From NCBI GenBank assembly GCA_964016885.1, contig OZ024749.1, positions 41,478,001 through 41,542,000 of the forward strand: DNA of 64,000 nucleotides, written 5' to 3'. The DNA is from Eledone cirrhosa (taxonomy: Eukaryota). The notes under the pieces are model-generated. The model searched no databases. It worked only from the letters and a program-made list of their open reading frames with translations, and was not told where the DNA came from. Within the stretch, counting starts at the first letter, position 1. Every line of letters begins with the position of its first letter. The translations under genes and the position numbers were made by a program. Below are positions 8,197 to 51,462 of the stretch, in pieces.

Positions 8197-8307
8197 ATCG
8201 GCAGTCTGAAGAGTAGATAGATTATGGGGGGTCAGGTCAGGTCAGGTCCATAACTCCTATGGGTGACCTTGTGCCAATCCTCTGCGAAACACGCGTAACA
8301 AGTCGAT
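8197..8307 (+). ncRNA. Type I hammerhead ribozyme motif with extended helix II
   Basis: atcggc-a-gt CTGAAGA gtaga...tctgc GAAA cacgcg TA | ac-aa-gtcgat. Helices I and II pair, triplet GUA, predicted cleavage after 8297. Confidence 0.7.
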
Positions 8308-11277
8308 TCCCACAATAAATATCTTATGCATGTAAACGAAACTTCCTTTTTTATCTAATATATATATATATATATATATATATATATATATATATATATA
8401 TATATATATATATGTATGTATATATGAGATGGGTCAGAAAAGAAACAGGACTGTGGTTGCAAAAAAAAAATATTTCAAATCGAAACTACAAATTACTAGT
8501 TTTCCTATTCAACCTCAAGTCTAACGTACTTTCCCATCCTTCTCTGCCACAGCTCCATGTACTCTGGAAGGATTCTCTGCAGTTCTGTTGAAAAACCTGT
8601 GAGGGCAACACCGTCTCATCTCTGTACACCTACTGCAGTATTCTGAGTGCTTCTGATGGAGCATTCTCCAGCCAGACCAGACACTTCAGGCTAGTTTGTT
8701 GCTCTGTGCCCATTGTTTGACAGCCTGCAGAGAGCTGGGATTGCAGTTATATACTCCCAGGATATTACATATGTCATATGGTGACACAACCTGCTAATCC
8801 TTACCTCAGTCATAGTTCACACAGCACACTAAGTCCTGTTATTTTTCTGACACACCTCATATATCATATATACATAAATAAAGGTATATATATATATATA
8901 TATATATATATATATATATATATATTATATCTATATATGTGTGGTTTCTGATTGTCATTGGTATTAATATATAGCTGAGTAAACCAAACCAAGGACTTTG
9001 GGGACACACACATTATATATATATATATATATATATATATATATATATATTCCTTCCTCATTAATAAGTTATGGTTATTATAGAAGCTATAACTTGTTTT
9101 TACTGTGAATAACTCAGTTTTTATCTGATATAAACTCTCTAATTTAGTTATCTCTGACTGGGCTTCACCTGATTACATTCCATGTCTGTGAGACATCTTG
9201 TATATATTATAAAGTATTGTAAATTATTTACATCTTCCTATAGTTATCCAGATGATCATGATCCTGGTCCTGATAATAATATTTAGTCATGAAGATAGAG
9301 GCAGTGCCCATGACCCTTTTCAGGGTCTTGACTAATAGAAAGAAGAAAAGTAGGTAGGTATCCTCAAATTAAATGTTTCTACTTTTGGCACAAGGCCAGC
9401 AATTACCCCAGTGCATTACTGGTGCTTTATTTTATCGACCCCGTAAGGAGGAAAAGCAGAATTAACCTCGACAGGATTTCAACTCAGAACATAAAGGGCA
9501 AAGCATGGTGTCTGATGCTCTACCGATACTGCCAATCCACCACCTTTGTTTAATATAATTGTTTCTACTTTTGGCACAAAGCCAGCAATTACCCAGTGTA
9601 TTACTGGTACTTTATTTTATCGACCCCGTAAGGATGAAAGGCAAAGTTAACCTCGGCTGGATTTACAAATAATAATAATTGTTTCTACATTTGGCACAAT
9701 ATAATGTCTGAATACTTGCTTTAGAGTTGGGCCAGATGATTCCATTAACCCTTTTCTTGGTATGGTATGGTCCTGTAATCAGTGCTGGATTTAGGACAAA
9801 TGAGGCCCTGTGCTAGTTAAGTTATGAGGCCCCTTACTTGGGCCTTGAAGGATTTTGAGAACACAAAGAACCAGAACGAATACCACAAGGTACTGAGGCC
9901 CCTACTCTAATGATTCCACCAATCTACCAGACTCTACTGGAACTTTATTTTATCAAACTCCAGAGGGAGAAAGGCTAAGTTGACTTTGGTGAGATTTGAA
10001 CTCAGGGTGCAGAGAGCTGAAACAGATACTGCAAGAGGTGGTGGTGGTGGTGGTGGTAGTAGTAGTGATAGTGTTGTTGTAAAGTAGTAACTGTGGTAAT
10101 GATGGTGGTGTTGTTGTTTAGTAGTAGTGGTTGTGGGTGTGTTAGTGGTGGTGGTTGTGGAGGTGTTAGTGGTGATGGTGGTGGGGATGTTAGTAGTGGT
10201 GGTTGTGGGGATGTTATTAGTGGTGGTTGTAGCTGTGTTAGTGGTGGTGGGGTGTTATTTCATTGTGAATTCCACAACACTTTACTCAGTGTTCCACCCA
10301 TGTAAGGAATTAATTTAATTTAATGAGTGGAGAGGTATTGGGGAGGAGGAGAGGAGCATTTCACTGGCATTCCCATCACTACCACCACCACCACCACTAC
10401 TATCACACCACCACCACTACTATCACACCACCACCACCACTACCTTCACACCACCACCACTACTATCACACCACCACCACCACTACTATCACACTGCCAA
10501 CACCCCCACCACCACTATCAAAACGATTACCACCACTACTGCCACCACCACCACCACCACCATCACTACTGCCACTACCTGTACCCTTTCTTCATATTAG
10601 CCACACCCTAATCTCATTAGAAATATGTACCCAAGGGTACACCTTGTATTTATTTCTAACTTAGAAATGTCTAAACATATTTTTTTTTTTAATATCCATC
10701 ATCATCATTATCACTGTCATCATTTTACGTCCACTTTCCATTTTGGCATGGGTTGGACGGGATGTTACTCTCCAAGACTAGACAGGTTGGAGAAACCATA
10801 TCTAGCCCATAATTTGGTATGGTTCCTACAGCTGGATGTCCTCTCTTCCTAACGTCAACCACTTCACAGAGCGTACTGGGTGCATTTTATCATAACACCA
10901 ACACTAGAGAGGCTGTCAAGTCCTTGACAGGACCAAAGGATTCCTAGTGAAATTAATTACCTAGAGACGCCTTCTGCATGAAAATCAACTTAGTTATATA
11001 GATGCTAATTTAACAAGTCTGTCTACAGTTGACTGAATTAGTAAATGCTGATCATCATTGAAAGTGATGCAAGATCCAGCATTTGTAACATCCTGGCTTC
11101 ACCAGAATTATATACCAGTCTCTTATATGCATTTATTCCATAACACATTATGATATTCTATATACACAAACCACAACACATATTCTATATACACAAGCCA
11201 CAACACATAATATACTGTATACACAAGACACAACATATTTGCTCATATATACGCAAGCAACAAGACATTATGGTATA

Positions 11278-11491
11278 TGAGGGTCAGCTGAAAAGTTCAT
11301 AAGTTGAAACATTCAAAGGCTGACCAACATACCCTCATGGAATGACCAAATGAGGTTTATTTTTCAACATACTACCTGGAAAGTAACAAGGCAATTATTA
11401 ATAAGAAGGGATGAAATTAATGCATGCAAGATTTCACAGATTTAGCATCACCCCTTCACAGTCAGCCCATGAACTTTTCAGCTGACCCTCA
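11278..11491. mobile_element. Tc1/mariner-type MITE
   Basis: 23-bp perfect TIR tgagggtcagctgaaaagttcat / atgaacttttcagctgaccctca, flanked by TA on both sides. Partial copy near 36790-36860. Confidence 0.8.
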
Positions 11492-50448: not shown

Positions 50449-50514
50449 CATTTATTAGCTTACAATTGTTTCGTCCAAACCGAGGTTTGGAGTCTTCGGA
50501 GCAATTTTTCAATG
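50449..50514 (-). ncRNA. Hammerhead motif, U4C variant, in the left arm of the large palindrome, sense to an NHE intron
   Basis: Minus strand: gct CCGAAGA c tccaaac ctcg gtttgga c GAAA caattg TA | agc. Confidence 0.6.
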
Positions 50515-51396
50515 ATTGTTTACATACTTGACCTCCTTTCCAACACAAGAGACATACAGAAACATATGTATATATCGATGCACAGTGGGGTGACATCCAT
50601 TATAATATTTTAGCATGGCAATTTACATTCAAAAATTAAAATCATATTAAAATAAAATTAAAATAAAATTAAAGTTAAAATACAACATCGGCAGTTTACG
50701 AAGATAATGCAAGAGGATAGTTTGAAGTAGTTAGTGTATGCAATAGTTACACGTGGGGCATGCACGTGTGTCTTATTTATATAAGATTATTGTGCGGCAA
50801 GGTGTTATATGCAATACAAGCACTTTAAGTGGGCAATCAAGAGTATTATGGGGGTTGTATTGATAAAGTATTTTTTATGTATGATAAAGAAGCTTGTGTG
50901 CAGAGAAATATTAAAAATGAGAAGCAAAATAACGTTTCCTGGATTGTGAAAATGGTGGTGTATATGAAAACCATAACATTAATTTGCTTCTCATTTTTAA
51001 TATTTCTCTGCACACAAGCTTCTTTATCATACATAAAAAATACTTTACCAATACAACCCCCATAATACTCTTGATTGCCCGCTTAAAGTGCTTGTATTGC
51101 ATATAACACCTTGCCGCACAATAATCTTATATAAATAAGACACACGTGCATGCCCCACGTGTAACTATTGTATACACTAGCTACTTCAAACTATCCTCTT
51201 GCATTATCTTCGTAAACTGCCGATGTTGTATTTTAACTTTAATTTTATTTTAATTTTATTTTAATATGATTTTAATTTTTGAATGTAAATTGCCATGCTA
51301 AAATATTATAATGAATGTCACCCCACTGTGCATCAATATATACATATGTTTCTGTATGTCTCTTGTGTTGGAAAGGAGGTCATGTATGTAAACAAT

Positions 51397-51462
51397 CATT
51401 GAAAAATTGCTCCGAAGACTCCAAACCTTGGTTTGGACGAAACAATTGTAAGCTAATAAATG
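51397..51462 (+). ncRNA. Hammerhead motif, U4C variant, in the right arm of the large palindrome
   Basis: gct CCGAAGA c tccaaac cttg gtttgga c GAAA caattg TA | agc. Confidence 0.6.

Follow-up and report, generated by a model that had tools for sequence, protein, structure and literature searches.

Hammerhead motifs in a 64-kb stretch of the Eledone cirrhosa genome as probable 3'-ends of truncated Penelope-like elements

The closest described relatives of the hammerhead ribozyme motifs analysed here belong to the Hydra clade of Penelope-like elements (PLEs). The motifs lie in a stretch of 64,000 nt of Eledone cirrhosa (assembly GCA_964016885.1, 3.0 Gb; contig OZ024749.1, positions 41,478,001 to 41,542,000), hereafter the window, which is AT-rich and full of (TA)n runs. 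The Hydra clade was defined by the protein motifs RW[KR], DKT, CxCx5C, CxxC and CxH together with the lack of CCHH; its members carry hammerheads and target (TA)n, and Hydra-1_Obim of Octopus bimaculoides is one of them (Craig et al. 2021, PMC8557442). As far as the consulted parts of that paper describe the clade, our elements share with it the C-terminal GIY-YIG endonuclease, the same motifs, hammerheads in pseudo-LTRs (pLTRs), insertion into (TA)n, tandem or inverted copies, and tails. However, the published elements are generally shorter than 3 kb and Hydra-1_Obim is given as 2507 bp with 'no pLTR', whereas here the units reach 6.2 kb, the 3' untranslated regions (UTRs) measure 0.5-3.3 kb and the tails 100-160 nt, against 30-40 in published Hydra elements. 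Furthermore, unlike in the published cases, one window holds at least seven divergent families, and helix II measures 50-116 nt in some of the ribozymes.

Three other systems are relevant, each compared on the parts of the sources consulted. Metazoan PLE hammerheads (Cervera and de la Pena 2014, PMC4209133) are also of type I, with a palindromic helix III, a dimer architecture and a U3-A8 variant; they too are mostly solo copies from truncated PLEs, with opposite-strand pairs 100-700 bp apart, and our family E fits their minimal consensus, including the bulge and G10.1-C11.1. Nevertheless, that study counts 2,000-9,000 motifs per genome, and most of our families differ in having 8-nt palindromes and no G10.1-C11.1 pair, and family A in having U4C, a change known from a viroid and reported to lower activity (PMC3088659). 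In vitro, reverse transcription of the Anolis Poseidon element PAc begins at two internal sites that lie downstream of its ribozyme, and a tail results (Frangieh et al. 2024, PMC11167929); two 3'-ends with a tail, AT-rich targets and insertions copied through the cleavage site are found here as well. Finally, the type I hammerheads of animal non-LTR retrozymes sit in short repeats that are non-coding and akin to pLTRs (PMC7229834; bioRxiv 10.64898/2026.07.22.740005); those of the axolotl are dimer-dependent and amount to 126,247 motifs (PMC7229834). Retrozymes are defined by head-to-tail units and circular RNAs, whereas the window copies are solo or head-to-head and their families continue into elements bearing open reading frames (ORFs). 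The class, the clade, the presence in octopus, the dimer architecture, U3-A8 and U4C are already in print, and the description of these elements as poorly described in the first-pass annotation of the window holds in part, since the Hydra clade with its hammerheads, its (TA)n targeting and Hydra-1_Obim had been published. We did not find a prior cephalopod hammerhead census, or one of this scale, in the literature searched, which did not extend to subscription journals, bioRxiv supplements or file S2 of Craig et al. A 2026 octopus repeat annotation reports recently active Penelope-like families, and its main text contains neither 'ribozyme' nor 'hammerhead'.

By direct reading and structure-aware scans we found a type I hammerhead fold at all ten positions that the first-pass annotation had listed and at both of its weaker ones, each position being the outer end of helix I. 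C3 (or U3) and H17 are at 8206/8297, 33975/34024, 39139/39177, 46094/46132, 46307/46390 and 51412/51450 on the plus strand and at 28611/28477, 36052/36003, 40698/40671 and 50499/50461 on the minus strand; the weaker motifs are 44216(+), with an inverted twin at 44208(-), and 49827(+). An initial strict descriptor recovered only 2 motifs and was later widened; in its fixed form it gives 7 matches in the window against a mean of 0.26 (maximum 2) in 100 dinucleotide shuffles. It catches 7 of the 13 tabulated window copies and overlooks the damaged ones (8206, 36052, 46307 and three of family F). Because the descriptor had been modelled on motifs already seen in the window, we added a blind test that left the helix III letters between GAA and helix I free and applied it to 650 kb of other loci. 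It gave 42 matches against 1.25 per shuffle replicate. A15.1/U16.1 was present in 33 of the 42 (3 of 25 in shuffled sequence), H17 in 40 (14 of 25), and helix III was self-complementary in 21 (none of 25). Both sets of matches are thus far above shuffled sequence, a comparison that was one of the checks that had been proposed.

The window motifs sort into nine repeat families: A (46094, 50499, 51412), B (39139), C (33975), D (36052), E (40698), F (44208, 44216, 45626, 49827), G (46307), H (8206) and I (28611). Among the ten motifs, 4 are intact (families B, C, E and I), 3 have the family-wide U4C core and 3 are damaged; the helix III palindrome is damaged in D and H, and the F copies are damaged too. 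Judged on C3-A9, G12-A14, A15.1-U16.1 and H17, the core is canonical in families B, C, D, E, F, H and I, with U4C in A and U3-A8 in G; the window copies 46307, 44208 and 49827 depart from it. Accordingly, the CUGANGA core that had been reported throughout is right for most motifs, but the three family A motifs read CCGAAGA, and the one at 46302 has U3-A8 and has lost G12. First-look genome searches, which give candidates and not copy numbers, returned 2893 for A, 324 for B, 919 for C, 870 for D, 718 for E, 2448 for G, 1700 for H and 557 for I. A further descriptor match at 60903(+), with a 97-nt helix II, has no relatives among the compared loci and is either chance or another family.

Regarding the pairing, we aligned 34 B/D-related motifs (32 hand-picked from 66 pattern matches, plus 2 window copies), families B and D having helix I and III sequences in common. 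In this set 94.1% of the cells are paired, both sides change in 13 of 19 pairs, and the covariation score is 0.495, against 0.275 for shuffled and 0.06-0.14 for slid alignments; these compensatory changes support helices I and II across families. Across at least 25 distinct stem/spacer types, the stems and N7 vary but the catalytic letters, H17 and C3-G8 (U3-A8 in G) are constant. Helix III is usually palindromic, which implies, as a prediction, cleavage as a dimer; the computed self-duplex energies of the 4-8-nt palindromes range from -1 to -10 kcal/mol. Two side observations concern the helices. In columns 19/44 of alignment A2, divergent families retain a C-C mismatch at position four of helix II while the adjacent pairs covary, possibly a tertiary contact. 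In several families of the control loci helix III consists of (AU)4, which is also the repeat targeted in the DNA.

Eight of the nine families could be tied to Penelope-like reverse transcriptase (RT)/GIY-YIG ORFs elsewhere in the genome, the hammerhead lying downstream of the ORF in sense orientation. Seven of them show Hydra-clade protein motifs and one, E, Neptune-type motifs; for family H no ORF link was found among the compared loci (genomic loci used for comparison carry L numbers below). The best case is family I, where tandem pLTRs about 6.2 kb apart flank an 813-aa ORF, making a full-length element. This ORF is open in 6 of 6 compared copies, and the family is very young because these intact copies differ by only 0-7 positions in 2439 nt. 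It contains RW[KR], DKT, CxCx5C, CxxC..E and CxH and lacks CCHH; in families A, B, C, D, F and G the ORF pieces hold subsets of these motifs, and likewise no CCHH, as far as each piece extends, with 31-46% identity to the family I protein. The layout of a single RT plus C-terminal GIY-YIG ORF between pLTRs is thus seen at full length in family I and in pieces in B, G, C, A, D and F, and 118 unnamed homologues were found. In family B, a GIY-YIG fragment adjoining one copy led to 49,968 loose candidates in a genome search; in 20 loci of 10 kb that surround such candidates, chosen partly for proximity to B, the family lies downstream of the endonuclease in direct orientation in 16 and upstream in inverted orientation in 17. 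Families G, C, A, D and F each lie 0.5-2.6 kb downstream of a related ORF on the same strand. Family E lies about 430 nt downstream of a CCHH-type endonuclease, with a CX2-5CxxC linker and the CCHH endonuclease in L316 and the CCHH core in L317; the endonuclease alone was seen at these loci, and no RT. The predicted cut site of family I is about 350 nt upstream of the ATG, whereas in PAc, which belongs to another clade, the ribozyme overlaps the start of the ORF in the account consulted (PMC11167929). Therefore, the first-pass suggestion that this genome hosts a diverse set of hammerhead-bearing PLE-like elements is borne out, and the proposed extension to RT and GIY-YIG ORFs succeeded for eight families (for E with the endonuclease only) and left H unlinked; the families are, nevertheless, not unrelated as had been stated, given the shared Hydra-clade motifs and the identity to the family I protein of seven of them. 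L092 (6826-8577), L254, L307 and L267 contain another type of PLE, marked by CX2-5CxxC plus CCHH, whose own hammerhead family follows the ORF by about 250 nt; it is absent from the window.

The insertions have two preferred 3'-ends, counted downstream of the predicted cut: about +45 in 18 and +200 to +230 in 36 of 56 family A matches, +50 in 38 and +150 to +170 in 58 of 101 family B matches, and +50 to +60 in 23 and +180 to +200 in another 23 of 46 family C matches. A TA run stands at the end in 47/56 (A), 91/101 (B) and 42/46 (C) matches, that is 84-91%, against 877 of 6000 random sites (15%). Depending on the family, 7-19 of 24-29 loci have a partner in inverted orientation that overlaps the copy. 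This anatomy, with two ends, TA flanks and inverted arms, corresponds to the published PLE pattern as read from the copies. Because the fixed ends lie downstream of the cut site, even 200-nt fragments hold a whole hammerhead. Different families are often neighbours within a single TA run (L051, L091, L110).

The window had been presented as a cluster of motifs, and this did not survive comparison with 60 evenly spaced 10-kb loci (600 kb, sampled from the placed sequence and not from unplaced contigs) and 50 kb of flank. The control loci gave 77 matches (29, 21 and 27 per 200 kb) and the flank 5, so that the control density is 8.2 per 64 kb, against 0 to 0.38 in shuffles, and the probability of at least 7 matches per 64 kb is 0.59. 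We therefore rejected a local cluster. The mean is 1.28 motifs per 10 kb (bootstrap 0.9-1.7), about one per 8 kb, which gives a genome estimate of around 371,000 motifs (257,000-496,000) in 3.0 Gb with false matches subtracted. This estimate overlooks damaged copies and counts both arms of inverted pairs, and for the latter reason the insertions are fewer than the motifs.

Taken together, these motifs are most probably type I hammerhead folds at the 3'-ends (pLTRs) of PLEs, mostly with Hydra motifs, present as truncated copies in TA repeats at ordinary genome density and likely to cut only as paired dimers in a tandem transcript; we give this reading a probability of about 0.88. It builds on the fold, the covariation, the linkage to ORFs on the same strand, the inverted arms, the two fixed 3'-ends, the TA flanks and the genome-wide density. 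A tandem element would be transcribed through two pLTRs, and the palindromic helices III of the two ribozymes would pair, probably with the aid of the element's protein, because, going by the behaviour of PLE ribozymes, such a helix could not close within one molecule; the RNA would thereby be trimmed to unit length. The RT-endonuclease would then nick (TA)n DNA and copy RNA that is uncut or has been re-joined, starting 45-205 nt downstream of the cut site, so that every insertion, however short, would have an intact hammerhead at its beginning. Where copying stopped early or took place at both broken ends, the remains would be solo or head-to-head fragments. Intronic copies that stand alone are accordingly predicted to be mostly inert passengers; the candidates for activity as monomers are G and F, whose helix III is a hairpin.

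Several points weigh against this interpretation. Cleavage of these motifs is a prediction from the fold, and the trimming role is unproven because in the lizard element PAc, in the in vitro work consulted (PMC11167929), ribozyme mutants had no effect on insertion, cleavage depended on protein and RNA reads that end at the site were absent. The U4C of family A, read from its sequence, would be expected to lower activity, and the G10.1-C11.1 pair is missing in many families, which have U-U or C-C in its place. The covariation test that had been proposed is favourable in the B/D-related set and fails in family F alone, where 2 of 13 pairs covary, no better than shuffles. Rfam, whose type I hammerhead model the first-pass annotation had proposed as a check, gave no match in the window at the gathering score, and no hammerhead family stands among the best 150 of its 316 weak matches; its models probably do not cover forms with a palindromic helix III or a long helix II. 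The linkage of D and that of F come from one locus each. Finally, Pfam returned no family for the 813-aa ORF of family I, neither RT nor GIY-YIG, and the clade calls rest on motifs.

An alternative is that the short copies are non-autonomous retrozymes which replicate as small circular RNAs and borrow the PLE enzyme. Many family B copies share a single start, about 75 nt upstream of the core, no ORF could be linked to family H, animal retrozymes are described as deriving from pLTRs (in the consulted part of bioRxiv 10.64898/2026.07.22.740005), and control locus L265 holds, at 8630-9700, a retrozyme-like tandem array of 311-bp units, arranged head-to-head, of another hammerhead family with a hammerhead in each unit. 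Nevertheless, no short head-to-tail tandem unit with a hammerhead was found among the window copies, all solo or head-to-head; the same sequence terminates ORF-bearing elements in eight families, and the 5' extents vary as truncation predicts. We therefore regard this alternative as unlikely.

It might also be that the hammerheads are vestigial, with the fold kept in the pLTR as a protein-binding or copying signal that rarely cleaves. Animal PLE ribozymes are low in activity or protein-dependent in the sources consulted (PMC4209133, PMC11167929), all the insertions read through the cut site, and the U4C of family A is family-wide, 50 of 62 matches with intact GAA having CCGAAGA and none a canonical core (a CUGAUGA relative exists at L278). 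But the constancy of catalytic letters, H17 and C3-G8 among variable stems and N7, described above, is what selection on catalysis would be expected to produce, and makes a vestigial role improbable.

In the opposite direction, one could suppose the densest known hammerhead population to be self-feeding and active. In family I, microsatellite makes up 1613 of the 3248 nt of the 3' UTR (L236, reverse complement 4312-7560), about half, and insertions therefore bring new TA-rich targets. Young Hydra-type elements would thus lay down their own (TA)n targets, and monomer-competent G and F copies, together with B/D cross-family dimers, would cut host pre-mRNAs enough for genome-wide selection on intron orientation. 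We consider this extension speculative and rather doubtful.

Most of the motifs had been placed inside one ion-exchanger gene, and this is correct: 9 of the 10 lie between predicted exons of an SLC9A/NHE-type Na+/H+ exchanger (NHE) gene on the minus strand, whose part in the window is 26783..59231 and which starts beyond it. The predicted exons are 59146-59231, 54197-54309, 46811-46888, 43532-43607, 42883-42994, 42313-42394, 41840-41935, 41362-41483, 40417-40526, 37264-37392, about 36465-36554, 33400-33469 and 31847-31900, and the last runs from 26907 to a stop near 26783. Exons 46811-46888 and 37264-37392 match NHE1/NHE3 chains in a search of PDB sequences, and for the remaining ones the prediction comes from their splice sites and open frames; two further exons tested alone against PDB sequences had no match, and the gene was not recovered by Pfam on exon-bearing frames, by a PF00999 genome search or by a one-exon protein search. 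It could be argued that the motifs were kept or accumulated there to cut the pre-mRNA and tune its output, since nine lie in predicted introns and 28611, 40698 and 50499, intact or family-typical, are on the transcribed strand. Nothing, however, points to a role for this gene. The density equals that of control loci and flanks, the orientation is mixed (4 of the 9 intronic motifs are sense), 50499 has a partner of 95.6% complementarity within the same intron, three copies have core or helix damage and most require a dimer partner; such tuning is therefore very improbable. As for chance matches in AT-rich, repeat-rich DNA, the silence of Rfam at threshold and the many low-scoring matches that one-mismatch searches yield in shuffles might suggest them, but they are refuted by the shuffle and blind helix III tests, as well as by the covariation and the hundreds to thousands of candidate copies in each family.

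Regarding the individual copies, family H lies outside the NHE gene at 8197..8307 (+), with a canonical core, a branched 73-nt helix II, an internal loop in helix I and an 8-nt palindromic helix III with one mismatch; it has about 80% identity to its best relatives and ends close to (TA)n. Family I is represented by a 5'-truncated Hydra-type PLE at 28267..30503 (-), its 5' limit approximate, with the microsatellite-rich 3' UTR and the pLTR, at 83-88% to a full-length copy. Its intact hammerhead, 28467..28621 (-), has a 10-bp helix I, an 8-nt palindromic helix III and a predicted cut after 28477; the canonical core, at 28611, is 116 nt upstream of GAAA, bridged by the long hairpin of helix II. 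We had considered 28467 a dead core, from nearer CTGTT-like letters, and rejected this once the true core was located.

The family C pLTR fragment at 33912..34071 (+) contains an intact hammerhead (33971-34028) with palindromic helix III, is identical over 159 nt to another genomic copy and has an inverted piece of the family tail directly upstream. The family D fragment, 35960..36130 (-), has its hammerhead at 35995-36060, with an 8-bp helix I and a substituted helix III. Family B is a pLTR at 39074..39330 (+), with an intact hammerhead (39127-39189) and a long tail ending in (TA)n. Family E is a pLTR fragment between TA runs at 40575..40760 (-), whose intact minimal hammerhead (40667-40702) has a bulged base, a 4-bp helix II and a 4-nt palindromic helix III. 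The family F copies comprise a head-to-head palindrome at 44146..44324, where 44216(+) has a truncated helix I and 44208(-) has G at position 17, a further degenerate palindromic copy at 45609..45793 (+) that was absent from the first-pass list, and a copy at 49815..49994 (+) with a substituted GAAA block.

Family A provides two insertions. The one at 45835..46175 joins an inverted tail arm (45835-46067, minus strand) to a hammerhead arm (46080-46144, plus strand) with the U4C core. The other, 50406..51671, is a 1.1-kb head-to-head inverted repeat (50406-51505, arms 95.6% alike) with hammerheads at 50449-50511(-) and 51397-51462(+), both U4C; its left arm halts at the short end and the right arm continues through the tail into (TA)n. 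Family G is a pLTR fragment at 46192..46410 (+) that ends in (TA)n, and its hammerhead (46302-46395) combines a U3-A8 core and a GUC site with a helix III that is a hairpin of 6 bp; among 25 aligned copies, G12 is missing in this one alone. End fragments of the same family without the first half of the core were seen at 34890-35060, 31577-31719, 39372-39502 and 18897-19024, some of them palindromic.

Some other repeats were observed as well. At 24985-25045 (-) there is a 5'-truncated piece of a repeat with GAAA before CUGAUGA, a rearranged (type-SGC-like) hammerhead whose site block is missing; fuller copies (L158, L258, L267, L233) have the site block and compensatory changes in helix I. Short palindromic repeats without a full core, at 44514-44603, 25179-25369 and 27156-27245, are probably element ends. 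Large C2H2 zinc-finger exons (Pfam) at 19210-23698 (+) converge on the NHE gene. Fragments of LINE-type RT ORFs, together with what we take to be a restriction-endonuclease-like domain, are found among 7147-7772, 54346-54917, 62838-63417, 15743-16051 and 51908-52264.

The estimated number of motifs, intact-looking ones by the descriptor, is about three times the largest published figure that we found, the 126,247 of the axolotl. Tens of natural hammerhead families are available in it, with long helices II and U4C and U3-A8 cores among their forms. With one motif per 8 kb most long genes hold several, and the strand bias in introns is therefore a direct test of cleavage in vivo. Furthermore, the near-identical intact 813-aa Hydra-type ORFs lend themselves readily to studies of the role that the ribozyme plays in PLEs.

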